Positions 32,517 to 64,000 of a stretch of DNA of 64,000 nucleotides are shown here, piece by piece. The stretch is from Candidatus Eiseniibacteriota bacterium. Lineage in GTDB: Bacteria > Eisenbacteria > RBG-16-71-46. The stretch covers positions 3,392,001 through 3,456,000 of the forward strand of contig OY970178.1 in the NCBI GenBank assembly GCA_963707915.1, in the 5' to 3' direction. A program made the position numbers and the translations under genes. The first letter of the stretch is position 1, and every line of letters starts with the position of its first letter. The notes below the pieces were generated by a model. That model made no database searches and was not told the DNA's origin. It saw nothing but the letters and a program-made list of their open reading frames with translations.

Positions 32517-32930
32517 TCACCGCGGGCCGGGCACGAGGTAGGTGAGGCCGACGAAGAAGGTTCGGGAGTCTTGCATGATCTGGTCCTGGAGATGCTCCTT
32601 CGATCCCGGGTCGCCGTAACGTGCGTCGAACAGGTTGCGGACCTCGAGCCCGGTCGTGAGTCCCGGCGCCAGGCGCAGGCCGAGCCGGGCGTCGCCGAGC
32701 GTCTGGTAGCCCATCGCACGGATCTCGGCGGCCGGGATCACCGTCACCGAGGAGGGCGTCTCCGAGAGCGGCAACGGACGCTTGCTGACCCCGGTGACCA
32801 TCTGCTCGCGCAGGAGGGAGAAAGCCGCGTCGTCGGGCTCCGCCGCCGAAGCGGGAACTCGCGACAGGGACGCGAGCAGCGCCCCGGCGAGCAGCGCCTG
32901 CAGGAGGGCCCGTCCGCGGGGCAGGCTCAT
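32517..32930 (-). pseudogene. Internally deleted TonB-dependent receptor (N-terminal plug start fused in frame to last beta-strands, 137 aa)
   Basis: N-terminus nearly identical to 34926-34689; fused at GDA to RNLFDARY.DP...QDSRTFF C-terminus. Confidence 0.8.
32687..32900. repeat. About 214-bp direct repeat, second copy at 34689-34902
   Basis: Manual alignment at offset 2002; five mismatches seen, all synonymous third positions. Confidence 0.9.
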
Positions 32931-34926
32931 CGGGGCTCCGACGCGCGGAAGGAGAACGTGACGAAGAGACTGCGCGGGTCCTGGGCGATCAGGTCCTGCG
33001 GTGTCTCGACCCATCCCGGATCGCTGTACCGCGCGTCGAACAGGTTGCGAGCCTCGATCCCGACCGTGACGCCGCGCACGAGCCGTCGCGACACGCGCGC
33101 GTCGCACGAGAGGGTCGCGGTGGTGCGCAGGTCGTTCCCCGCGATCCGCGGCGAGAGGTAGCGCAGGCCCGCACCCAGGGCCGTCCGGCCGTCGCGCCCG
33201 GTGTGGAAGGCGAGCAGGTGCGCGTTCCAGCGCGGCGAGTTCGTGATCTCCGCGCCTGTGCGGCTGTCCTCGCTCCGCTGCCAGGCCACCGCCACCCGCG
33301 CGTGGGTCCCGGCCCCGGGGGTGACGCGCACGCCGGCCTCGAGACCGCGGCAGCGCACGCGCTGCTGGTTCCCGTAGTTCGACGCTCCGGACTCGTCCAA
33401 CTGCACGAGGTCGATGAGGTCCCGGATGCGGCTGGCGTAGGCGGTGAGGAAGGTCCGATGGGGCCCGATCTCGTGCTCGAGGGTCCCCTCGACGGTGAAG
33501 ATCCGCTCGGGAGTGAGCCGGCCGCCGGCCAGGGCGGGGCCCATGGCGTAGGACTCGGTCTCCCTGGCGAAGGGGCACGGAACGCGGAACCGCCCAGCAG
33601 CTTGAGCCGGGTGGCCGGCGCCATGGTCCACACCAGGTCGGCCCGCGGACTGACGACGGCCCGGTAGCGCGAGTCGTTGTCGAGACGCGCGCCCGCCGTG
33701 AGGATCAGCCGTCGGCCGAGGCGCGCCTCGTCCTGCAGGTAGAGGGCCAGTGCGCCCCCGGTGAGGCTCCGGTCGTAGTACAGCTCGTAGGGGGCGACGT
33801 CGTAGTTCAACAGGCGCCCGCTCACCATGCGCTGGGCTTCCAGGCCGAGCGTGAGCGTCTGCATGGTCGCGATCGACCAGATGGCACGGCCCTCGGCGCC
33901 CACCACGTCCGCGTTCCCGAAGTCCAGGTTCACGAGCGGCTCGGACCCCGGTTCGGAGAGGGAGACGAACCGGGCGCGGGTGCGCGACCCGTCCCAGTAG
34001 GCGCGGCCCGACAACTCGAGCGCGGGGGTCGTGCGCCGCGTGGCGGAGAGCTCGACGAAGTCGTGCCCGTCCCAGGCCGGGGAGGAGTTGTCGCTGACCG
34101 GCATCGTGTAGGAGGCGGGCATCTGGGCCTTCTGGCGCTCGTTGAACTTGACGACGAGCCGGACGGGTCCCCAGTCCGCGTCCCCGAAGAAGGCCAGGGC
34201 GCGCTCGTGGTCGCGGGCCACGGCCAGGCCGGGGTACTCGACGCCATCGATCGAAGCGGGCAGGGCGAGCTCGCGGCCCCGGGCCTCGAGCCACGAGACG
34301 CTCGCTCGCCACTCCGCGCGGCCCGGTCGTGCCGAGGCGATCGAGGCGTGCGTGCGCCACTCGTTGGCGCCGCCGGCGCGCACGTCCACCCGCGTGCCGG
34401 GATCGCTGCGGGGCTGGCGGGTCACGACGTTCACCACCGCCAGCACGGCGTAGCTGCCGTAGAGCGCCGAGCCCGGGCCGCGCGCGATCTCGATCCGCTC
34501 GACCTCCTCCATGTCGAGTCCCAGCTCGGGCCCGATCAGCGCGTCGCCGTAGACGCTGCCGTTCATCGTGTGGCCGTTGATGGTGAGCAGGAGCTTGTTG
34601 TTGAAGTCGCCCGGACGCTGCAGCCCCCGCACGCCGACGTTGGTGTAGGTCCGGTCGTAGGTGACGAACACCCCCCGGACCCAGCGCAGGGCGTCGCCGA
34701 GCGTCTGGTAGCCCATGGCACGGATCTCGGCGGCCGGGATCACCGTCACCGAGGAGGGCGTCTCCGAGAGCGGCAACGGACGCTTGCTGACCCCGGTGAC
34801 CATCTGCTCGCGCAGGAGGGAGAAGGCCGCGTCGTCGGGCTCTGCCGCCGAAGCGGGAACTCGTGACAGGGACGCGAGCAGCGCCCCGGCGAGGAGCGCC
34901 TGGAAGATGGTTCGTCTGTGGGACAC
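32927..34926 (-). pseudogene. TonB-dependent receptor with a single frameshift near 33565
   Basis: Plug motifs VRGL..PGDFNNKLLL.ING, ERIEIARGPGSALYG; frame switches after GSAFRAPSP to ETES...LTPERI...RNLFDARY; GGAGG RBS before GTG. Confidence 0.85.
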
Positions 34927-52148: not shown

Positions 52149-52280
52149 GCAATGGGTCTCCGGTGACGGGTGATCCGGCGCCCGCGGCCCCGCCCGGTTT
52201 CACCCGGCGTCCCCGCAGGCAAGATGGCCCCCATTATCCACGACCCGGCCCGGCCGCCCAAGCGGGCCGCCAGGAGACCG

Positions 52281-52985
52281 ATGTCCGCGAGCCAGCCCGC
52301 GCCGCACGCGCCCGACGAGCCCGGACGGCCCCTGCGGCCCCCGCGGGGCCTGCGGCCCCGGGAGAAGCTGCGCGCCCGCGGGCCGTCCGCGCTGGCCGAC
52401 GCCGAGCTGCTCGCGCTGGTGCTGGGATCGGGCACGGCCGGACGCAGCGCGCTGCGCATCGGGCGTCACCTGGCCCGCCGCAGCCCGCAGGAGCTGGGCG
52501 CCTGGTCGAGCGCGCGCTGGCTGCTCGTGCCCGGCGTCGGTCCCGCGCACGCGGCCGCGCTGGCGGCGGCCTTCGAGCTGGGACGCCGGGCGGCCGAGGG
52601 AGCGCCCGGCGGCGCGGCGATCCGCGGCCCCGAGGACGTGCTCGCCCAGGTGCGCGACCTGCCGCGCGCGCGCAAGGAGCACTTCGTCGTGTTGCTGCTC
52701 AACGCGCGCCACGAGATGCAGTGCCGCGAGGTGGTCTCGATCGGCAGCCTCAACGCGTCCATCGTGCACCCCCGCGAAGTGTTCCAGCCCGCCATCCTGC
52801 ACTCGGCCGCCGCCGTGGTGCTGGTGCACAACCATCCCAGCGGCGACCCGGAGCCCAGCGAGGAGGACCTGAGCATCACCCGGCGGCTGGTGCAGGTGGG
52901 GGAGGTGGTCGGCATCGCGGTGCTCGACCACGTCATCGTGGCGATGCGCGGCCTGGTGAGCCTGCGCGCCCGGCAACTGCTCTGA
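52281..52985 (+). CDS. radC: RadC/JAB-MPN domain protein
   Basis: PREKL...G..AL.DAELLA, EHF, GSLNASIVHPREVF, HNHPSGD.EPS.ED, LDHVI. Confidence 0.95.
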   Translation: MSASQPAPHAPDEPGRPLRPPRGLRPREKLRARGPSALADAELLALVLGSGTAGRSALRIGRHLARRSPQELGAWSSARWLLVPGVGPAHAAALAAAFELGRRAAEGAPGGAAIRGPEDVLAQVRDLPRARKEHFVVLLLNARHEMQCREVVSIGSLNASIVHPREVFQPAILHSAAAVVLVHNHPSGDPEPSEEDLSITRRLVQVGEVVGIAVLDHVIVAMRGLVSLRARQLL

Positions 52986-53129
52986 AGCCGGCTCCACGCG
53001 GCCGTCTCCTCGCGCCGCGGCCCGCGGCGTCCCGGACGACCGGTGGCGCCGTCGCTCGTGCCGTGTCGCGTGTTCGCGGGACGCCGGGCGCCGCTTGCCG
53101 GGGCGCCTGCGACGGGCCATGCTCCGGGC

Positions 53130-53549
53130 ATGGCAGAAGGCCACGGCACGTTCGACCACACCGGCGACCTGGGTCTCGAGGTCCGGGCCCCGAGCGCCGC
53201 GCGGCTCTTCGCCCTGGCGGCCGAGGCCCTGATGGCGCTGGTCGCGGACGCGCGCGGGGCCCCGCCCGACCTGGAGCGGGCCGTGCGCATCACCGGGGAC
53301 GACCCCGAGGACCTGCTGGTGCACTGGCTCAACACCGTGCTGCTGGAGTCCGAACTGGCGAAGGTGGTATGGACCAGCGCGGAGGTGCGCGTGCTGACGC
53401 CGACCGCGCTCGAGGCGACACTGCGCGGCTCGCGATTCGACCCCGCGCGCCAGACCTTCCTGCGCGAGGTCAAGGCCGTCTCCCTGCACGCGCTCGAGCT
53501 GGACCTGCACGAGCCGGACTGCCGCTGTCGCCTGGTGCTCGACCTCTGA
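53130..53549 (+). CDS. Archease
   Basis: FDHTGDLG, LLVHWLN, EVKAVSLH, VLDL C-terminus. Confidence 0.88.
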   Translation: MAEGHGTFDHTGDLGLEVRAPSAARLFALAAEALMALVADARGAPPDLERAVRITGDDPEDLLVHWLNTVLLESELAKVVWTSAEVRVLTPTALEATLRGSRFDPARQTFLREVKAVSLHALELDLHEPDCRCRLVLDL

Positions 53550-53571
53550 GCGCGCTCCATCGTGGCCCCCA

Positions 53572-53658
53572 ATTCGGCAACGGGCGCGGCGTCGGTCTGG
53601 GCGGCCCCGCACCCTGGCGCGAATCGTCGGCGTTTTCGAAGACGGCTCTGGAGTCTGA
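53572..53658 (+). pseudogene. Decayed 3' remnant of the double-HTH gene (left end of cassette 1)
   Basis: RGVGL/RPRTLARIVGVFEDGSGV* aligns in register with RGVGIPRPCTLAGMAAALEVDLRA* of 59354-59794; DNA similarity continues to 53709 (equivalent to 59858). Confidence 0.6.
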
Positions 53659-53736: not shown

Positions 53737-53748
53737 GGGGGGGGGGGG
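53737..53748 (+). repeat. G12 homopolymer in the putative promoter region of the large cargo gene
   Basis: TTGCGT-C-G12-TATGTGCTACT. Confidence 0.8.
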
Positions 53749-53887
53749 TATGTGCTACTCGTCCAGAGGTCCTTGATCGCGAGCACGGAGAAGCACGTAC
53801 GTCGCGGGGCGGCTGATTCGGCCGCCGTAGCACGTGGGCCGTCTTCGATGCTCGACAGGTCAGGGACCTTCCTCGGAGGCCGCGCAC

Positions 53888-56800
53888 ATGTCCCACCGTT
53901 TCCTGCCTGCCCTGGCAGGCATGCTGGTCTTTGCTGCCCTCGTCCCCTCTACTGCCTCCGCCGGCAACAACGCCGGCGGTCGGGCGTTCCTCAGCTGGGA
54001 CCGCGCAGGTATGGATTCCGTGCTCACCGAGGTTCCAGTGGCGCCCTTCCCTCTGTTCCTGAACCTGCGCGACGCTCCCGACGTGCACGCGCTTGCGGCG
54101 CGGATCATCTGGACCACGAACACCGAGGGCGCCCCGCCGTGCTACATGCTCGTTTCGGCGAGCGCGCCCGACGCGGCTCCGGCCCCAGACAGCCTGGGTG
54201 GTTGGGCCTTTGACTCGCGTCCCGGCCAGGACTTCAACGGTGACACGACCTACACCTGGACCATAGCCTTCGACGCCAACGACAGTTCGAAGGACCGCAT
54301 CGAGTACCGGGTCAGCGGAGCATCGTGCGCCGACACGGCGCACGCCGAGTTCCTGGCGGCGAGGGTGATGGTGATGGATGCCCTCGGCCGCATCGACACA
54401 CTGATTGTGACTGGGGGAGTCCGGATCGCACCACGGATCATCGACCTTGCGGTTGAGCAGGTCTCACCGAGGCGGGTCCCCGTGCGGCAGGCCACGGACC
54501 TCTCGATCATCGGTCGTGGCTTCGAGCCGGGCTCGCGCGTCTTCCTGCAACGTGGCGGCCAGCGCATCGAGGCGAGCCACGTGGTCGTGTCGGATCTGAC
54601 CGAACTCATGGCGCGGGTAGTGTCGCCCTTCTCCGGCGATGATTCGCTCGACCTGGTCGTCGAGCACCCGGTGGGCGTGGAAGCGAGCTTGCCTTCGAGC
54701 CTGCGGTCGACCGGCGCCGAACAGGACTCCTTCTATCGCCCCACGAATGACGACTTCGCGTTCACGCAGATCCCGCTGCGCGCGACGACAAGGGAGCAGA
54801 ATGAGTACCTGCAGGATCCGGTTACGCATCTCGAGTGGCCCGGTTGGCTGGACGGACCGAAACTGCGGGTAATCCGTGCGCCGGGTGATACCGTCGCGAT
54901 CATGCTGAGCCAGCCTTACAACGGAATCGGGCTACAGTCGAACCACTACGAGGCCTCATCATGGGTCCGCCTGCACCTGGACCCACCCCGGCTGGCGACG
55001 TCACTCGCAACGCTCGTCACGTCGGGAAAGACGTTCAAGCACGAGTCGGTGGACTTCCAGGACGGCGGCAAGCCGATCCTGCGCGTGCAGGTCAACTACG
55101 TGGACGGGGACTCGCACGTCACGCAGCTCGTCATCGGGACCAATGTGCGGAACTGGATATCGGGGCAGATGTTCTGCGGCGGTCAAGTGCGTCCTTTCTA
55201 CGACACGCCCCCCGCCGACCCGCTCGGGTCCTGTGCCCAGATCTACTCCGGTCCCGGTCAGACGGGCAGTCCGCCGCCGACAGTCCACTATGACCTGCAG
55301 GAAATCCCGCTCCCGGCATCGAAACGTGCCAAGCGCATCGAGTCGGTCGAGTTCCTAGCTGAGCCGGTCTACCATGTCTGCGGCAACTACTACGATGGCA
55401 CTAGCGGGATCTTCGGACTCGCGGTATGGCCTGAGTTCAAGGCCACTGACGCCGAAGGCGACACGGTCTCGCGACTGAGCCAGAACACGAACCAATCCCA
55501 CGGCGGCTACCTGTTCGGTAGCGAGGCGGTCGGGACGAGACGAACGACAGACGACACGGCGTGCCAAGTCGCCTCGGCGGCGATGAACTACTCGTTCCTC
55601 GGGGTGCCCTGCGCAGTGGACAGCTTGAACAACTTTCTGAGGCGCAGCCGCGGCTACTTCCCTGAGGACGTCGCCTTCGTCTCCAGGGTCTCGACCTCGG
55701 GCGACACGATCGAATTCAGAGGACCCGCTCTGGCCGACAGAATCAACTGGAAGCAGGACCATACCTTCCTCGTCGAGCGCGGAAGGTACGTCCACCCGAT
55801 CGCCACCTTCAGGATCTTGCCCGGAGAGCCCCGCCGGGCCGTTGTTGAAACGCGGCACGATCTCTCCTCCGCGGTCGCGGTCGGAGACACGGGACGGGTC
55901 TACTGGAGCATGAATCCCACAAGGGCCGATCGCTTCACACGGGACGCGAGCGGCCAGCCTCGCCTGCGCACGGTTGAGATCCCCGGTTCCCCAAGTCTCG
56001 CGGCGAAAGTGGAGAGCCTGCTGGTGCGTGGTATCCCGGTTCAGGTGAACACGCATGGGCACATGGTCGTGGCCGATGGCTGGGTGCCTTCGTTCCGCCC
56101 GGATACAACGGCTCGCGGTACCTATGCGATCCAGGATCCACTCGATCGCAGGAACTACCGGCGGCTGATCCAAGGGAAGTACCGGAACGAGTTCAAGCTA
56201 GCGCGCTACGTTGTCGCGGTCGGGGGTGGCCCGGGTCCGAACGCCCTCGCCGGGCTGAACGAGGCGGGAGACGAGCATGGCCTATCGATCGTCGTGGGCC
56301 ATGCAAGCAACGTGACGATCACGGACCCGATGGGTAGGAGCATCGCTCGCGACCCGGGGACAGGCCTCTACTCGAGCAGCATCCCGGACGCGTGGGTGAT
56401 CGATGACATCGTCGCCGATCACGATGTGGATGACGGGCTCGATGGCCCGCCGGTGATGCATCAGTTTCACCTGCCCGCTGCCGTCGATGGCCACTACACC
56501 GTCCGCGTTGATTCCGACGGCGGCATGGCCGTCTCCGTGGCCGCATTCGACACCGGTGGCGTTGTTGCCGCCACGGCTGCAATGGACACATCGCAGGCGC
56601 CGAGTGGGAACAGCTACGATGTGACGTACTCGGCCGCCACGTCATCGGTCGCGATCGCATGGCTCGGGCCAATCGCGGTGGAGGTCCGTTCCCCGGTGGA
56701 GCCTCGGTTCCGGGTGCTGCGCAACCCGACCAGCGGTCCCGTTCAGTTCGAGATTCGATCTGCCGAAGACACAGAGGCGGACCATCTCGAAGTATTCGAC

Positions 56801-56962
56801 CTTTGCGGCAGGCGAGTGGCCGCGCTCGACATCGGATCAGCGAGCCTGCGCGGCAGCGTCGTCACCTGGGACTGGCGAGGCGCTGGATGCCGCGCGGGGG
56901 TCTACTTCGCACTCCAGCGGTCCCGCGCCCGCGGCGTCGTGCGGTTTGTTGTACTGCGATAG
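53888..56962 (+). CDS. Large secreted multidomain protein: IPT/TIG, C39-like peptidase, beta domain, FlgD/T9SS-like C-terminal domain
   Basis: Signal peptide; VSP...IIGRGF.PG (IPT); TACQVASAAM, GHMVVADG, AIQDP (C/H/D); NP...EVFDL.GRRV...W....AGVYF...RFVVLR. Confidence 0.75.
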   Translation: MSHRFLPALAGMLVFAALVPSTASAGNNAGGRAFLSWDRAGMDSVLTEVPVAPFPLFLNLRDAPDVHALAARIIWTTNTEGAPPCYMLVSASAPDAAPAPDSLGGWAFDSRPGQDFNGDTTYTWTIAFDANDSSKDRIEYRVSGASCADTAHAEFLAARVMVMDALGRIDTLIVTGGVRIAPRIIDLAVEQVSPRRVPVRQATDLSIIGRGFEPGSRVFLQRGGQRIEASHVVVSDLTELMARVVSPFSGDDSLDLVVEHPVGVEASLPSSLRSTGAEQDSFYRPTNDDFAFTQIPLRATTREQNEYLQDPVTHLEWPGWLDGPKLRVIRAPGDTVAIMLSQPYNGIGLQSNHYEASSWVRLHLDPPRLATSLATLVTSGKTFKHESVDFQDGGKPILRVQVNYVDGDSHVTQLVIGTNVRNWISGQMFCGGQVRPFYDTPPADPLGSCAQIYSGPGQTGSPPPTVHYDLQEIPLPASKRAKRIESVEFLAEPVYHVCGNYYDGTSGIFGLAVWPEFKATDAEGDTVSRLSQNTNQSHGGYLFGSEAVGTRRTTDDTACQVASAAMNYSFLGVPCAVDSLNNFLRRSRGYFPEDVAFVSRVSTSGDTIEFRGPALADRINWKQDHTFLVERGRYVHPIATFRILPGEPRRAVVETRHDLSSAVAVGDTGRVYWSMNPTRADRFTRDASGQPRLRTVEIPGSPSLAAKVESLLVRGIPVQVNTHGHMVVADGWVPSFRPDTTARGTYAIQDPLDRRNYRRLIQGKYRNEFKLARYVVAVGGGPGPNALAGLNEAGDEHGLSIVVGHASNVTITDPMGRSIARDPGTGLYSSSIPDAWVIDDIVADHDVDDGLDGPPVMHQFHLPAAVDGHYTVRVDSDGGMAVSVAAFDTGGVVAATAAMDTSQAPSGNSYDVTYSAATSSVAIAWLGPIAVEVRSPVEPRFRVLRNPTSGPVQFEIRSAEDTEADHLEVFDLCGRRVAALDIGSASLRGSVVTWDWRGAGCRAGVYFALQRSRARGVVRFVVLR

Positions 56963-56981
56963 AGGGAGACGGAGGGCGACT

Positions 56982-57632
56982 ATGGGGAAGGGTTGTTGGG
57001 TACCGCTCTTGGTGCTGTTCTGGGCGCTGCTCGGTGGGTGTGCGGCGTCCAGCCCGCAAGCCCTCCGACCGTATTCGGTGCTCTCGGAGGTCAGGATCGA
57101 TGTCTGGGGAGGGGACACGCACCACGTAGGAGTCGTACTCGTGGACAGGACGGGCAGACGCTGTGGATGGGAGGCTGGCGCGGTTCTCCAGGACCTGTTC
57201 TGGGATTGCACGTACGACAACGCGGAGCCGGGCATCCCAGATGAGTTTCCACCCATGGACGACACGATTGGGACGTTGAGGTCGCTGGCCTGGGACGACT
57301 CTGCAACCACGGGTGAGTCGGGGTTGATGGCCTCCGAACAGCCGCCGATATCTAGCAGTTTCGTCATTGCGGCGCATGAGAATGGCACCGGCTTACTCAC
57401 CGCGGGCAAGTGTGAGCTGTGGGTTGTTCCGATCCAGACAGGCCCGGTGACCTTTCAGATTCGCGCCAAGCGCGGCTCGCCGCAACACTGTGGTAGCGCC
57501 GAATTCGTGGATTCGCTGCAATCTGGATTCCGCTACCGCTACTGCGCCGCGTGGAAGTCAACGGCCGACAGTTGCAGTGTCCGGATCAGCCTGGCGGCGC
57601 GTGAGAAGGTCGGGGAGAACTCCAAGAAGTAG
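56982..57632 (+). CDS. Lipoprotein partner of the large cargo gene
   Basis: GGAGGG RBS, LLGGC lipobox, VVLVDRTGRRCG motif. Confidence 0.7.
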   Translation: MGKGCWVPLLVLFWALLGGCAASSPQALRPYSVLSEVRIDVWGGDTHHVGVVLVDRTGRRCGWEAGAVLQDLFWDCTYDNAEPGIPDEFPPMDDTIGTLRSLAWDDSATTGESGLMASEQPPISSSFVIAAHENGTGLLTAGKCELWVVPIQTGPVTFQIRAKRGSPQHCGSAEFVDSLQSGFRYRYCAAWKSTADSCSVRISLAAREKVGENSKK

Positions 57633-57706
57633 CACTACAGTCCGGACAAGCTCCGTGCCTCGTGCGCCCGGTACTGCAACGCCTCCGCCAACGCGCGCAC
57701 GCTGAT

Positions 57707-58942
57707 TGATCCGCTACCCGCCACTGGAGCAGCCGGGCACGCTCAAAGCGAGTTCCTCGGGCGCCTCGGCTCCTTCGACCTCGGCACGATACTCCGCCGG
57801 GGTCCGCTGCCCCAAGCTCCCGTGGGGCCGTCGGTTGTTGTACTCCTCCCGCCAGGCGTCGAGCGACACCCGGGCGTCGATGACAGACAGAAAGTAGTGT
57901 TGCGATAAGCACTCACGCCTCAGCTGGGCGTTGAAGCTCTCGATGAAGGGGTTGTCGGTCGGCTTGCCCGGACGGCTGAAGTCCAGCCGCACGTGATTGA
58001 CGTAGGCCCAGTGGTCGAACGCCTTCGAGGTGAACTCCGTCCCGTTGTCCACGTGAATCACCGCCGGCAACCCGCGCCGTACACCTTCGCGCGTCAGCAC
58101 CCGGGCGACCTCGGCGCCGCCGAATGAGCCGCTGACCTCGAGGGCCACGCACTCGCGGGTGAACGTGTCGAGCACCGTCAGCACCCGCAGCTTCCGGCCA
58201 TCCGCCAGCGCATCGCTCACGAAGTCCATCGCCCAGAGCTGGTTGGTCCCGGTGGCCGTGAGTGTCTCTTGCCGGCGCACCGCACTGCGGCGCCGCTTGG
58301 GCCGTTTCGACCGCAGACAGAGCCCTTCTTCCCGATATAGCCGGTACGTCCGCTTGGCGTTCACCTTCCAGCCTTCCCGACGCAGCAACACCTGCACGCG
58401 GCGATACCCGTAGCTCACCCGGGTCGTCGCGATCTCCTTGATCCTCTGGCGCAGCGGGGTCTGATCCGGCCGGACCGGGCGGTACAGCATCGAGGACATT
58501 GCCGTTCCCGAGGCGCGGCAGGCCTTGCGCAAGCTCACGCGGTAGGCCTCCTGCATCCAGCGGGTCACGGCGCGGCGCTCGACCGGCCTTACCACTTTTT
58601 TCGGAGCGCCTCCTGCAGCATCGTCCGGTCCAGCGTCAGGTCCGCGACGACGGCCTTGAGGCGTCGGTTCTCGTCCCGCAGCTGCCGCAGCTCCCGCAGC
58701 TCCGGTGAGGAGATCCCACCGAACTTCTTCTTCCAGCGGTAGAACGTGGTCTCGGTGATGCCCAGCTCCCGGCAGACCTCCCCGACCACCACCCCGCCCT
58801 CGACCCGCTTCAGGGCCTGGGCAATCTGCTCGACCGTGAACTTGCTGGTCTTCATCCTGGGTCCTCCTCCTTGCGGTTCAGGAGGCCCCGAGGTTAGCTC
58901 ATTGCGACAGTCCCGCTGCTCCAGGAAACGGGGAGCGGATCA
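57707..58942 (-). mobile_element. IS3-family insertion sequence copy 1 (1236 bp, IS407-like), 4-bp TSD TGAT
   Basis: TGATCCGCT...AGCGGATCA imperfect terminal IRs; TGAT at 57703-57706 and 58943-58946. Confidence 0.95.
57714..58855 (-). CDS. IS3 transposase OrfA (58589-58855) and OrfB (57714-58595), -1 frameshift fusion
   Basis: HTH OrfA; DDE motifs WAMDF, DNGTEF, IESFN; A-AAA-AAG slippery site. Confidence 0.95.
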
Positions 58943-59335
58943 TGATGCACTCACCGCCCGCGAGGTCGGCGATCGTGCGCGCCACGCGCATGGCGCGATG
59001 CACAGCGCGCGCGCTCATGCCCCCACGGTCCACGGCGTCGGCGACGAGCCGTCGCCCGGCCTGATCCAGCGCGCAGCACTCATCGAGCCGCGACGGCGGC
59101 AGCAGCGCGTTCAGGCAGCCGCGCTCGCGCTGACGCGCCCGCGCCGCGAGCACACGCGCCCGAACCACGGCGCTCGACTCGCCCGCCGACGCCGCCTGCA
59201 GCTCGCGCGAGGTGAGCGCCGGCACCTCGACCTGCAGGTCGAGCCGGTCCAGCACCGGCCCGCTCACCCGGGCGTGGTAGTGCGCGATGTCGGTCGGCGT
59301 GCAGCGACAGCCGCGTTTCGGGTGCCCGAGCCACC

Positions 59336-59353
59336 CGCAACGGCACCGTTGCG
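59336..59353. other. Putative att site: CGCAACGG-CA-CCGTTGCG at the comM homology breakpoint
   Basis: Perfect 8-bp inverted repeat around a 2-bp core; homology to comM ends exactly at the core (59345 corresponds to 62221). Confidence 0.7.
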
Positions 59354-59794
59354 TTGCCTTTCTGCAACCTCCGCCTCCGTGGGCGCCGACCGCGAGTAAT
59401 CCCAAGGGGTTATCCGCAGGAGCCTCGGACGCTTGGTCAGCAGATCCGCCGGCGGAGGATAGACCTGGGGCTGACGCAACGAACCCTCGCTGAGCGGCTG
59501 GGCTGCTGCTTGGAGACGGTGGCGGGATGGGAGCAGGACGAGAGCGTGCCCCTGGCCCGGCGCTGGCCGGCGATCGAATCCGCCCTCGGCCCCGGGCTCG
59601 TTCCGGAACGGGACGGCCTCCCGGGGCGGGTCCTGGCCGCCCGGCTCCGGCTGGGGCTCACGCAGGAGGCCTTGGCGAAGCTCGCGGGCGTGGACCTCAG
59701 GACTGTTCGCAACGTGGAGCGGGGCGTCGGGATTCCCCGTCCTTGCACCTTGGCGGGGATGGCCGCCGCCCTCGAAGTGGACCTCCGTGCCTGA
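59354..59794 (+). CDS. Tandem double XRE-type HTH protein
   Basis: (L)PFC...YPQEPRTLGQQIRRRRIDLGLTQ..LA..LG....V..WE; second HTH RLRLGLTQEALAKLAGVD..TVRNVERG. Confidence 0.85.
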   Translation: MPFCNLRLRGRRPRVIPRGYPQEPRTLGQQIRRRRIDLGLTQRTLAERLGCCLETVAGWEQDESVPLARRWPAIESALGPGLVPERDGLPGRVLAARLRLGLTQEALAKLAGVDLRTVRNVERGVGIPRPCTLAGMAAALEVDLRA

Positions 59795-59858
59795 GACCGG
59801 GTTCGCCCACACCCATGGCTGGGGAGGATGTGGCGGGCGCCCTGCCATTCGATATCGG

Positions 59859-61094
59859 TGATCCGCTCCCCGTTTCCTGGAGCAGCGGGACTGTCGCAAT
59901 GAGCTAACCTCGGGGCCTCCTGAACCGCAAGGAGGAGGACCCAGGATGAAGACCAGCAAGTTCACGGTCGAGCAGATTGCCCAGGCCCTGAAGCGGGTCG
60001 AGGGCGGGGTGGTGGTCGGGGAGGTCTGCCGGGAGCTGGGCATCACCGAGACCACGTTCTACCGCTGGAAGAAGAAGTTCGGTGGGATCTCCTCACCGGA
60101 GCTGCGGGAGCTGCGGCAGCTGCGGGACGAGAACCGACGCCTCAAGGCCGTCGTCGCGGACCTGACGCTGGACCGGACGATGCTGCAGGAGGCGCTCCGA
60201 AAAAAGTGGTAAGGCCGGTCGAGCGCCGCGCCGTGACCCGCTGGATGCACGAGGCCTACCGCGTCAGCTTGCGCAAGGCCTGCCGCGCCTCGGGAACGGC
60301 AATGTCCTCGATGCTGTACCGCCCGGTCCGGCCGGATCAGACCCCGCTGCGCCAGAGGATCAAGGAGATCGCGACGACCCGGGTGAGCTACGGGTATCGC
60401 CGCGTGCAGGTGTTGCTGCGTCGGGAAGGCTGGAAGGTGAACGCCAAGCGGACGTACCGGCTATATCGGGAAGAAGGGCTCTGTCTGCGGTCGAAACGGC
60501 CCAAGCGGCGCCGCAGTGCGGTGCGCCGGCAAGAGACACTCACGGCCACCGGGACCAACCAGCTCTGGGCGATGGACTTCGTGAGCGATGCGCTGGCGGA
60601 TGGCCGGAAGCTGCGGGTGCTGACGGTGCTCGACACGTTCACCCGCGAGTGCGTGGCCCTCGAGGTCAGCGGCTCATTCGGCGGCGCCGAGGTCGCCCGG
60701 GTGCTGACGCGCGAAGGTGTACGGCGCGGGTTGCCGGCGGTGATTCACGTGGACAACGGGACGGAGTTCACCTCGAAGGCGTTCGACCACTGGGCCTACG
60801 TCAATCACGTGCGGCTGGACTTCAGCCGTCCGGGCAAGCCGACCGACAACCCCTTCATCGAGAGCTTCAACGCCCAGCTGAGGCGTGAGTGCTTATCGCA
60901 ACACTACTTTCTGTCTGTCATCGACGCCCGGGTGTCGCTCGACGCCTGGCGGGAGGAGTACAACAACCGACGGCCCCACGGGAGCTTGGGGCAGCGGACC
61001 CCGGCGGAGTATCGTGCCGAGGTCGAAGGAGCCGAGGCGCCCGAGGAACTCGCTTTGAGCGTGCCCGGCTGCTCCAGTGGCGGGTAGCGGATCA
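59859..61094 (+). mobile_element. IS3-family insertion sequence copy 2 (1236 bp), no TSD
   Basis: Near-identical inverted copy of 57707-58942; flanks TCGG and CCCG differ. Confidence 0.95.
59946..61087 (+). CDS. IS3 transposase OrfA (59946-60212) and OrfB (60206-61087)
   Basis: Same as copy 1; CGA-AAA-AAG-TGG-TAA frameshift window. Confidence 0.95.
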
Positions 61095-61209
61095 CCCGCA
61101 GCGGCTGGCCTCTTGATCTGTACCAGCGTTGGGGGCTACGTCAATCAGGCTGGCAACGGAGAACGTCGCGATCACGCGGCGCGTGGTCGTGCTTGGCGGG
61201 AGGCACTGA
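61095..61209 (+). pseudogene. C-terminal remnant of a FlgD/T9SS-like cargo gene
   Basis: GGYV/IRLATENVAITRRVVVLGGRH*; stop overlaps next start (TGATG). Confidence 0.55.
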
Positions 61210-61730
61210 TGAGGCTTCTCGGCGTTATGGCGATTGTGGTTGCGGGGTGCGCCCTGGTGGGCTCGAGCACGGCGGGTTCGGCAGGGAAGCGGAGCACTGC
61301 AACTGACCGGCTCTACATCGTCGTGCATGGTGGCGCGCACGTGGTCCTCACCGACGCGAGGGGGAGGACGTCAGGTGACTGTGATACCACGGGAGTCCGC
61401 ATCCCCGCTTGCGAGTATAGAACGGACGTGGCGTTGTTTGCTCCTCGTGCGACGGAGAAGCGAATGGTCATGTTCATCCTCGGGCCTCCTTCCCCTGGGC
61501 GTTACCGGCTCGGTGCTGAGGTAGCGGACAGCGGTGGGGTCTTCGTCGAGTGTGCGTGGCAGAGTGCAGGGGGTGGCGGGACGTCGGCTGGCGGTCTCCC
61601 TGCTGAAATCGGTACGCACGGTGTCTGGAGCATCCAGTGGGTCCAGGGCAGTCATGGGAAGCCCTCCACGCTGCAGTCGCGACGGATTGAGCCCCCGGAC
61701 ACCTCCGGGGCGACGTCGCCTAGGCGCTGA
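61209..61730 (+). CDS. Small exported protein, paralogous to the beta domain of the large cargo protein
   Basis: Signal peptide; LYIVVHGGAHVVLTDARGRTSG...IP...P.PGRYRL. Confidence 0.7.
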   Translation: MRLLGVMAIVVAGCALVGSSTAGSAGKRSTATDRLYIVVHGGAHVVLTDARGRTSGDCDTTGVRIPACEYRTDVALFAPRATEKRMVMFILGPPSPGRYRLGAEVADSGGVFVECAWQSAGGGGTSAGGLPAEIGTHGVWSIQWVQGSHGKPSTLQSRRIEPPDTSGATSPRR

Positions 61731-61732
61731 CT

Positions 61733-63262
61733 TCACGACGTCCTTCCCGGATGAGTGCCGGCTATGAGTCTCCCCTCGTACGCCCGGTACTGCAACGCCT
61801 CTGCCAGCGCGCGCACGATGATGCGCTCCTCGCCTGCCAGGTCCGCGATGGTCCGCGCCACGCGCATGGCGCGGTGCACGGCGCGTGCGCTCATGCCGCC
61901 GCGGTCCACGGCATCGGCGACGAGCCGTCGTCCGGCCTGATCCAGCGCGCAGCACTCATCGAGCCGCGACGGCGGCAGCAGCGCGTTCAGGCAGCCGCGC
62001 TCGCGCTGACGCGCCCGCGCCGCGAGCACCCGTGCCCGCACCGTCGCGCTCGACTCGCCCGATGTTGCCGCCTGCAGCTCGAGCGCCGTCAGCGCTGGCA
62101 CCTCGATCTGTATATCAATCCTGTCCAACACCGGCCCGCTCACCCGCGCGTGGTGCTGTGCGATCTCGGTCGGCGTGCACCGACAGCCCCGTCGCGGATG
62201 CCCGAGCCAACCGCAGCGGCAGGGGTTCATCGCCGCGACCAGCAGGACGCTCGCCGGGAACTCGCTGGCGCCGCTGGCGCGCACGATGGTGACCGTGCCG
62301 TTCTCGAGCGGCTGGCGCAGCGCGTCCAGCAGTCCGCGCGCGAACTCGGAGAGTTCGTCGAGGAACAGCACGCCGTGGTGGGCGAGCGAGATCTCGCCGG
62401 GGCGCGGCGGCGAGCCGCCACCCACCAGCCCGGCGGAGGAGACCGTGTGGTGCGGGGCGCGGTAGGGGCGGCGGGTCATCAGCCCGCGCCCGGGGCGGCG
62501 CAGCCCGGCGGCCGAGTGCAGTCGCGTGACCACCAGCGCCTCCTCGGGCTCGAGCGGCGGGAGGATGCCGGGCAGCCGTCTCGCGAGCATGGACTTGCCG
62601 GCGCCGGGCGGGCCGACGTAGAGCAGGTGGTGTCCGCCCGCGGCGGCGATCTCGAGTGCGCGGCGCGCCACCGCCTGGCCGCGCACGTCGCAGAGATCCT
62701 CGCTCCTCGCGGGCTCCGGATCGGGCGGCGCCGGGGCCTGGCAGGGCCGCTCCGCTCCGCGCAGCCAGTCGATCGCCTCCTGCAGGGTGTCCACGGCGTG
62801 CACGGCCAGCCCTTCGACGAGGGCGGCCTCCGGGGCGCAGCCGGAGGCGCACAGCAGGGTCGTCACGCCCGCGCGCCACAGCGCCTCGGCCAGTGGCAGG
62901 GTGCCGCGCACGCCGCGCAGGCGGCCGTCGAGTGCCAGTTCGCCCAGCGCGGCCGCGCCGTCGAGCCGCTCACGCGGGGCCTGCCCGGTGGCGACCAGCA
63001 CGCCCACGGCGACGGCGAGGTCGGTCGACGAGCCCTCCTTGCGGCGCTCGGCGGGGGCGAGGTTCACGGTGACCTTGCGGTCGGGCAACTGGAAGCCGGC
63101 GTTGCGCAGCGCGGGCCAGACCCGGTCGCGCGCCTCGCGGCCGGTGGCGTCGGGCAGGCCCACGAGGACGAAGCCGGGCAGGCCGGGCCCGACGTCCACC
63201 TCGCACTCGACCGGGAGCGCCTCCAGCCCCCACAGGGCGGCGGTCCGCACGCGGCTCAGCAT
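61733..63262 (-). CDS. comM: YifB/ComM Mg-chelatase-like AAA+ ATPase
   Basis: VGLPD...E.R.RV, NLAPA...KEG, GPPGAGKSM, RAPHH, PGEISLAHHGVLFLDE, AAMNPCRCG. Confidence 0.95.
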   Translation of the reverse strand: MLSRVRTAALWGLEALPVECEVDVGPGLPGFVLVGLPDATGREARDRVWPALRNAGFQLPDRKVTVNLAPAERRKEGSSTDLAVAVGVLVATGQAPRERLDGAAALGELALDGRLRGVRGTLPLAEALWRAGVTTLLCASGCAPEAALVEGLAVHAVDTLQEAIDWLRGAERPCQAPAPPDPEPARSEDLCDVRGQAVARRALEIAAAGGHHLLYVGPPGAGKSMLARRLPGILPPLEPEEALVVTRLHSAAGLRRPGRGLMTRRPYRAPHHTVSSAGLVGGGSPPRPGEISLAHHGVLFLDELSEFARGLLDALRQPLENGTVTIVRASGASEFPASVLLVAAMNPCRCGWLGHPRRGCRCTPTEIAQHHARVSGPVLDRIDIQIEVPALTALELQAATSGESSATVRARVLAARARQRERGCLNALLPPSRLDECCALDQAGRRLVADAVDRGGMSARAVHRAMRVARTIADLAGEERIIVRALAEALQYRAYEGRLIAGTHPGRTS

Positions 63263-63436
63263 GGGAATGGCTCCGCGGGGGCGGGCGGTAGGGGGACGCT
63301 CGCAGCTATGCAAACGGCGGGCCCGTTCGAGCCTGCGCCGCACCCCGCGTCGGCGGGCGGTGCTGCCCGCCTTCGTCCGCCCCGCCCGTCCGCCGGCCCG
63401 CGGACGTCCGGGGCGGATCTGCGCCCTGCTGCGGGC

Positions 63437-64000
63437 CTACGTCCCGGTGACCGCGCTCTTCACCAGCGCCATCATCTCGTCGAACGGGAGCCGCTGGCCG
63501 AGCAGGGCCATGCGCACCACGCCCTGGCGGTCGATCAGCACGAACCCCGGCCGCACCTGCCGCATGCGGGAGTCGTACAGCCCGTAGACCTGGCTGATCT
63601 CCCCGGTGACGTCCGAGAGCAGGACGATCGGCAGGTTCTCGCGCTCGGCGTGGGACTTCAGGACGTGCGCCTTGTCGGCGCAGATGCCGTAGGGCTTCAC
63701 GCCCAGCCGGCGCAGGTCGGGCTCGATCTCCTTCAGGGGCGTCAGGTCCGCGCGGCGGTCGGCGAAGACCAGCAGGATCCAGTAGCCCTTGAGGTGCGAG
63801 AGGCGCACCGGCCGCCCCTGCGAACCGTCGAGCTCGAAACCGGGCGCCGGTTCACCCACGTAGACCTGGCTCAGGATGTGGCTCTCCTGCGCGGTGGGGG
63901 AGACCGGGCTCTGGGGCCCGGCGGGGGTCGCCACGGGGGTCCTGGCCTTGCTCGTCTCGTCGGCGCGCGTCGCGCCCGCCAGCGCCAGCAGCATCACCAC
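63437..64000 (-). CDS. AhpC/TSA redoxin-fold exported protein lacking the peroxidatic Cys (5' truncated by window edge)
   Basis: VGEPAPGFEL....G..VRLS.LKG, LLSD..G.I...YG, FVLIDRQGVVR. Confidence 0.75.
   Translation of the reverse strand: MVMLLALAGATRADETSKARTPVATPAGPQSPVSPTAQESHILSQVYVGEPAPGFELDGSQGRPVRLSHLKGYWILLVFADRRADLTPLKEIEPDLRRLGVKPYGICADKAHVLKSHAERENLPIVLLSDVTGEISQVYGLYDSRMRQVRPGFVLIDRQGVVRMALLGQRLPFDEMMALVKSAVTGT

Follow-up and report, generated by a model that had tools for sequence, protein, structure and literature searches.

The window analysed here is a stretch of 64,000 nucleotides in which part of the gene comM occurs twice. The intact comM gene (61733-63343, minus strand), with an AhpC/TSA gene upstream of it (63437-64000), encodes a protein of 536 aa with the Pfam domains ChlI, Mg_chelatase and Mg_chelatase_C. 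The second copy, recognized by alignment to comM, is a displaced 3' end on the same strand, which begins with the codons for CRCG (58943-59345) and ends in a tail (57658-57706) that is collinear with the first part across an insertion sequence. Its counterpart within intact comM, the homologous 3' part at 61774-62221 (minus strand), is best read as a surrogate 3' end supplied by an inserted cassette, and with it comM is left intact; no third comM copy was found in the genome. Between the two copies lie a gene for a double XRE-type HTH_3 protein (59354-59794, plus strand; Pfam HTH_3, E 9e-19), the first gene of what is referred to below as the younger cassette, and ORF217 (61077-61730, plus strand), a small putative lipoprotein of 217 aa for which no Pfam match was found. 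ORF217 is the remaining cargo of the younger cassette and weakly matches a small cargo protein of the related genome G004 (E 0.001).

Two copies of an IS3-family element interrupt this arrangement. The element is 1236 bp long and present three times in the genome (third copy at C1:451222-452457), with 99.8-100% identity between copies. Copy 1 (57707-58942, minus strand) lies within the displaced comM copy and is the only one with a clean 4-bp target duplication (TGAT); the other two have none, copy 2 (59859-61094, plus strand) being bordered by TCGG and CCCG. The IS copies that are devoid of a target duplication suggest IS-mediated deletion or rearrangement and, judged by the cargo order in relatives, copy 2 occupies the place of a missing large cargo gene.

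To the left of the displaced comM copy, and converging on it, are two genes of cargo type (53834-57632, plus strand) for a secreted protein of 1042 aa and a lipoprotein-like protein of 228 aa, with homologues in cassettes of other genomes. They are followed further left by the host flank, consisting of radC and an archease gene (52167-53546, plus strand), with about 90% aa identity to the flank downstream of comM in G004, G005, G007 and G010; the RadC and Archease Pfam domains were found on the G010 orthologues, and in tblastx comparisons of the left flank, which gave mostly G+C-rich noise, the usable matches were those to radC (about 90% aa identity). The only homopolymer of at least 10 in the window, a run of 12 G (53737-53748), is located in the intergenic region directly upstream of the gene for the 1042-aa secreted protein and could cause slipped-strand variation. 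Elsewhere in the window, exact direct repeats of 107 bp are found at 32716-32822 and 34718-34824, 2002 bp apart.

Where the displaced comM copy meets the younger cassette, a perfect 8-2-8 palindrome is found (59336-59353, CGCAACGG-CA-CCGTTGCG; full string CGCAACGGCACCGTTGCG), which forms the core of a recombinant joint. On the minus strand its central TG provides the first two bases of TGC, the codon with which C-R-C-G starts in the comM 3' copy. In a local alignment the comM fragment shows 88% identity to intact comM over 404 nt, with the end at 59345 corresponding to 62221; the comM homology thus breaks, exact to the base, at the central dinucleotide of the palindrome (59344-59345, TG on the minus and CA on the plus strand), the putative crossover dinucleotide. 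The equivalent site in intact comM (62212-62229, CGCAGCGGCAGGGGTTCA) is asymmetric. In these respects the preliminary description was accurate: direct reading of the letters recovers the palindrome at 59336-59353, the CA does represent the first two bases of the Cys codon in CRCG, the comM alignment does stop there, and its sequence confirms that the site in intact comM lacks the symmetry.

The palindrome alone has little meaning, because such palindromes are common in a genome of 72% G+C: the perfect 8-2-8 form occurs 7 times within the window and 439 times across the 3.62-Mb genome, or about 1.2e-4 per position. It could thus be a functionless chance feature of G+C-rich DNA, and the rarity of the perfect form among comparable junctions (2 of 24, see below) points the same way. 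However, we estimate the chance that such a palindrome is centred to the base on the homology break at about 1e-4, or at about 4e-3 when an offset of a few bases and spacers of 0-6 are tolerated, and one of its arms is conserved across 25 genomes. Base-exact centring together with the recurrence of the non-comM arm at the same place in other genomes is unexplained by chance, and an origin by chance alone is hardly credible.

This recurrence became apparent in a survey of comM fragments in 31 genomes (the window genome, G000, and 30 relatives), in which many fragments start at residue ~371-375 and several contigs break there. The non-comM side GGCAACGCAACGG is located directly 5' of the TG in the window, in G004 and, twice, in G010, with a variant in G005. 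Searching 206 genomes of the phylum for GGCAACGCAACGG-TG-YNNNTGYGG with up to 2 mismatches yielded 39 matches in 25 genomes, compared with 4 for the reversed control, all of them in an evidence base of metagenome-assembled genomes of which several are fragmented exactly at this repeat. Same-strand sets of matches spaced 5-8 kb apart occur in G127, G100, G031, G032 and G034. All 24 distinct comM-type junctions among the loci fetched break at the same TG. Their palindrome scores, by contrast with the invariant breakpoint, are scattered, with 8/8 symmetric positions in 2 junctions, 7/8 in 3, 6/8 in 3, 5/8 in 8, 4/8 in 6 and 3/8 in 2. The two perfect cases are the window and one site in G032, where a variant of the arm (CGCAGGGG) is the mirror image of CCC codons for Pro. 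Symmetry is found at the outer CGCA/TGCG positions in 19-24 of the 24 junctions, and at the inner four in only 2-13. Hence the insertion point and the element arm are conserved and the perfect palindrome is not; of the conservation which the preliminary description had proposed to look for in aligned junctions, the CA/TG core and its position hold throughout (24/24), but the symmetry of the arms does not.

The conserved arm on the element side, referred to here as the P arm (59346-59367, minus strand), reads TTGCAGAAAGGCAACGCAACGG toward the core, contains the conserved core GGCAACGCAAC and carries the motif GGCAACGC at positions -13 to -6. It is kept in the window and in G004, G010, G127, G100, G113, G115 and G156, and a near-identical arm adjoins genes of large serine recombinases (LSRs). 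At the window joint the motif GGCAACGC is present in the element arm only: the comM arm at +6 to +13 reads GCGGGTGG, which by eye matches the mirrored motif at 3 of 8 positions. Because the comM arm is devoid of the recombinase motif, the window joint is in its half-site composition a hybrid, attR-like site and not a true attP. Coding sequence of comM makes up the left half of the palindrome, and its right half would be the recombinase half-site of the cassette, whose inner 8 bases mirror one particular spelling of CRCG (TGC CGT TGC G). The symmetry is perfect in the window solely through the codon choice of this comM copy, which has just this spelling; the perfect palindrome is thus a coincidence of codons added to a site that is partly symmetric by itself. 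Read from the P arm across the core, the right arm is comM coding sequence regardless of whether this sequence came from the host or from an older cassette. The earlier suggestion that the symmetry marks an attP-like joint between two elements therefore finds no support in a perfect form seen in just 2 of 24 junctions and a motif confined to one side. Just past the archease stop codon, at 53560-53590, we noticed CCCCCAATTCGGCAACGG, which resembles the A/T-flanked GGCAACG half-site but has neither the register nor the orientation that a joint would require; this is probably chance, possibly a decayed arm.

The position of the P arm at the start of the HTH gene raises the question whether it is instead an operator, promoter or 5' coding end of this gene, with the palindrome as a repressor-binding site. 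XRE-type regulators bind palindromes, the putative TTG start of the HTH gene is located inside the P arm, the homologues of this gene begin at the junction in every unit examined, and the variation between arms, as read by eye, includes third-codon positions (CCT/CCA, TTC/TTT). Nevertheless, the same arm is found beside LSR genes in both orientations to comM, at loci where it is not adjoined by this HTH gene; one half of the palindrome belongs to comM and varies among junctions; and the end of the arm invariably coincides with the break in comM homology. A role in regulation as the explanation of the arm is thus improbable; the roles of operator and recombinase site are not mutually exclusive.

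A pointer to the enzyme comes from the LSR genes themselves. One LSR family, whose members in G100 and G021 are 69% identical, is represented by one gene each in 16 of the 206 genomes. The 3' end of these genes is followed by [A-rich][G/A]GCAACGCAAC, essentially the arm seen in the window, and in 14 of the 16 loci comM adjoins at the very same dinucleotide. In 10 loci the arm is followed by CA and the reverse-complemented comM 5' part, in 4 by TG and the comM 3' part; in the remaining two, L096 (G155:C205) and L108 (G014:C178), it is followed by another gene. The same half-site is thus found with the core flipped between the two orientation classes, which places the crossover at TG/CA. The polarity of serine integrases is set by the core alone, and a reversed core with the same half-site leads to insertion in the opposite orientation; a 2-bp core that occurs flipped in two orientations is consistent with this prediction. 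At L096 and L108 the other gene is the start of a peroxiredoxin-like gene (MATSL...KPAPDF in our own translation), and this neighbour may represent a second target site or an unintegrated form.

Details of individual LSR loci agree on the position. In G100 the LSR-side arm and the arm that follows the comM 5'-TG match at 13 of 23 positions, with TGGCAACGC in both at mirrored distance; unlike the window joint, these arms carry the half-site motif on both sides. A different LSR of 574 aa in G005 (Resolvase, Recombinase, Zn_ribbon_recom) abuts AACCGCAACCG-TG-comM 3', and on another G005 contig an HTH-type arm with TG is followed by an imperfect inverted LSR-side arm (20/30) and the start of the LSR gene. 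Dethiobacter has a locus at which comM is split behind the same NP codons, and the gene that converges on this comM 5' part encodes an LSR with 46% identity to the G005 enzyme. Three LSR lineages therefore abut the same comM dinucleotide. With 24 of 24 junctions, 14 of 16 LSR loci and the flipped core, the part of the preliminary description that took the palindrome for a serine-recombinase joint with a 2-bp CA/TG core is supported by comparison. In five genomes (G045, G047, G031, G044, G136) no comM 3' copy and no close HTH gene were found in the 6-40 kb beyond the LSR, where the far end of such an element would be sought. The window genome contains one gene with a Resolvase domain, an LSR (L033) located about 96 kb away, which we considered as the cognate enzyme and rejected; it shares 21-24% identity with the LSRs in question, is not related to the families that target comM, and is not flanked by a GGCAACG motif. 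No G100-type LSR was found in the window genome.

The younger cassette itself encodes no recombinase, a feature it shares with comparable units elsewhere. We examined seven units bounded by arm-TG joints in five genomes, namely three in tandem behind intact comM in G127 and one each in G100, G113, G115 and G156, and recombinase or transposase families were detected in none of their 95 ORFs of at least 150 aa. In each unit a double-HTH gene adjoins the arm, and one or two secreted proteins of large size are encoded as well (GH32/43-like, DUF5122 propeller or FG-GAP), which end in FlgD_ig or Por_Secre_tail domains; the gene order from the arm is HTH gene, large protein, small protein and a converging comM 3' copy. 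The G100-type LSR is absent from four of the five genomes; in G100, an LSR joint is followed in tandem by an HTH unit. The unit in the window, with bounds of attachment type and no recombinase, has the make-up of a cis-mobilizable cassette, and the window locus represents, in decayed form, a family of cassettes found widely in the phylum.

A replacement gene end carried by an element is typical of tyrosine integrases, many of whose islands carry the 3' end of their target. Since the cassette brings along about 450 bp of comM-like sequence, it might have been joined to comM by a tyrosine recombinase, or else by homologous recombination or a segmental duplication of the comM tail; a 100%-identical stretch within the two comM copies (bins of 95-98% identity) does suggest gene conversion. 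However, no tyrosine recombinase was found in the window region or among the 95 unit ORFs, three LSR lineages abut the same dinucleotide, and the same arm with a flipped 2-bp core in both orientations corresponds to the polarity of serine recombinases; a duplication is further contradicted by the identical breakpoint in 24 junctions. Origins of this kind are thus very improbable.

Whether the younger cassette entered next to another cassette or into an otherwise untouched host gene is less clear-cut. Tandem accretion, as proposed in the preliminary description, is real in relatives, as seen from G127, G100, G031, G032 and G034. For the window it is also rather likely, because genes of cargo type sit left of the comM fragment: an older cassette would then have left this fragment as its surrogate tail and would have lost its far end. 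Homologues of the 1042-aa protein are located inside units of G004, G127, G022 and G005:C171, those of the 228-aa protein in G004 (twice) and G022, and the order of genes left of the fragment is that of a unit minus the HTH gene and the arm. A profile search with the 228-aa protein recovered just its four training members (six rows, of which two are duplicate DNA), and this small cargo gene is thus not a general mark of the units.

The alternative is a single insertion, with the displaced comM copy (59345 down to 57658) as the host's own 3' end, the joint as an ordinary attR and the genes at 53834-57632 as native. It draws on the presence of just two comM 3' copies in the genome, which leaves the tandem reading without a third copy, on the host genes radC and archease that follow 4.1 kb further on as in relatives, and on what the supposed older cassette is missing, namely an HTH gene and a P arm belonging to it as well as the host end of comM, with no remnant of an HTH gene or P arm upstream of the 1042-aa gene. 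G004 has a similar, truncated layout, so that two independent losses would be needed if an older cassette is assumed. On the other hand, homologues of the 1042-aa and 228-aa proteins occur within comM-bounded units (G004, G127, G022, G005:C171), and in G005 a comM fragment and radC are separated by about 190 bp, a stretch that contains neither of the two genes. Furthermore, the small proteins after the fragment in the window genome and G004 are 29% identical, compared with 91% for the comM 5' part (protein level), which argues that they were imported and are not vertical orthologues. On balance a single insertion seems rather unlikely. We also attempted to tell host-native from imported comM 3' ends by their identity, using a matrix and bins for 15 of the 17 3' ends extracted, and had to abandon this approach: genus-type copies are 75-88% alike and mosaic, which makes the two indistinguishable. 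Identity between the window genome and G004 changes across the junction from 90.7% on the 5' side to 86.1% on the 3' side, a weak signal with no drop in G007 and G006.

Taken together, we regard it as probable that the palindrome is a recombinant joint left by site-specific insertion of a cassette into comM, catalysed by an LSR acting in trans, and likely a joint between two cassettes. A small cassette would have inserted at the TG that opens the first Cys codon of the NPCxCG motif of comM. This cassette would comprise positions 59346-62221 (2876 bp including the IS copy), with the P arm, the HTH gene, cargo and the surrogate comM 3' end, the last of which would keep comM whole. The candidate enzyme is an LSR from the family whose genes adjoin this arm in 16 related genomes; its action in trans is suggested because the cassette is without a recombinase and the genome without that family. 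Since an older cassette, with the genes at 53834-57632 as its cargo, is the most likely source of the displaced comM copy as a surrogate end, the joint would be one of cassette to cassette. The younger cassette appears to be missing its large cargo gene next to IS copy 2, the one without a target duplication. IS3-family elements have damaged both cassettes, and the site is probably a fossil.

This reading has a consequence for the chemistry of insertion. According to the textbook rule, serine integrases join attP with attB partners. As judged from its half-sites, a free circle of the cassette would carry a hybrid site of the P/B' type, and entry of such a site into comM is outside the canonical attP x attB chemistry of serine integrases. 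The HTH protein might serve as a directionality or specificity factor.

Insertion of serine-recombinase elements at comM as such has precedents. Among the predicted site-specific LSRs, 12.4% target a 'magnesium chelatase' gene (comM), according to Durrant et al. 2022 (PMC10083194), and phage WO sr1WO is described as integrating into the magnesium chelatase gene of Wolbachia (PMC9203015). The likeness to our loci extends to the target at the level of the gene, to the enzyme class and to the LSR gene that adjoins the attachment site in relatives; the unit in the window differs in that it is without a recombinase, measures only 1.6 kb without the IS copy and has a surrogate comM 3' end. A closer parallel in organization is offered by Dehalococcoides, for which tandem islands with a CcrB-like serine recombinase are described at ssrA, and islands without an integration module are proposed to be cis-mobilizable and gathered by accretion (PMC3146451). 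Common to both are the tandem position downstream of a single-copy gene, repeats of the gene 3' end and an element-side motif next to the repeat. In Dehalococcoides the target is an RNA gene with a repeat of 20 bp, compared with a protein-coding surrogate end of about 450 bp here, and most islands keep their integrase, compared with none of the seven units examined here.

Stacking of recombinase-less elements beside others is also familiar from staphylococci, where SCC and pseudo-SCC elements are inserted at rlmH (orfX) by Ccr serine recombinases and cassettes devoid of ccr are stacked beside those that bear it; use of one site at the 3' end of a conserved gene is common to both systems, and the recombinase subfamily and the target are different. 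In integrons, small or promoterless cargo cassettes that lack a recombinase accumulate at one site through an enzyme encoded outside them, a tyrosine recombinase acting on folded single-stranded attC. The units described here differ in that they measure 5-8 kb, have a regulator gene of their own and duplicate part of the target gene. It is conceivable, as a tentative proposal less favoured than the joint itself, that a phylum-wide, integron-like cassette system exists, which depends on an LSR supplied in trans and in which newcomers stack at one comM dinucleotide and each restores comM. Under this proposal a cassette of 5-8 kb would be devoid of a recombinase and might combine a single half-site with genes for an XRE-type regulator and for secreted proteins of large size, together with a surrogate tail of comM, and if it holds true, insertion needs a combination of partners outside the canonical attP x attB rule.

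Within the literature searched, cassettes at comM that are devoid of a recombinase were not described in any paper. The targeting of comM by serine recombinases has been published before; the addition made here is a family of recombinase-less cassettes which share the half-site of the recombinase, are stacked in tandem at one dinucleotide and each bring a replacement comM tail, with which the host gene survives. If these cassettes move, they would represent a gene-capture system based on a serine recombinase that delivers genes for secreted proteins across a poorly known phylum, and they raise the testable question of which site pairs such an enzyme joins. Compared with this, the perfect palindrome itself is a minor point.

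In a look-up among public reads, the best holder contained a share of 0.25 of the sampled words; conserved parts of comM were covered only by short contigs from other organisms, and the joints listed had sides of 21-34 letters at 90% likeness. Two further comM loci of relatives deserve mention. At about 7110-7125 of L029 (G005:C231), the comM 5' part ends in ...GCGATGAAT and is followed by unrelated sequence; this break lies 5-6 bases before the usual TG and is thus a different breakpoint, perhaps of another kind of insertion. At L014 (G010:C38, position 9048) a comM tail is found detached from its gene, with no comM 5' part upstream; the 3' copy is preceded instead by GCAATGAATCCG, corresponding to comM-like AMNP codons, and before that by a transketolase-like gene.
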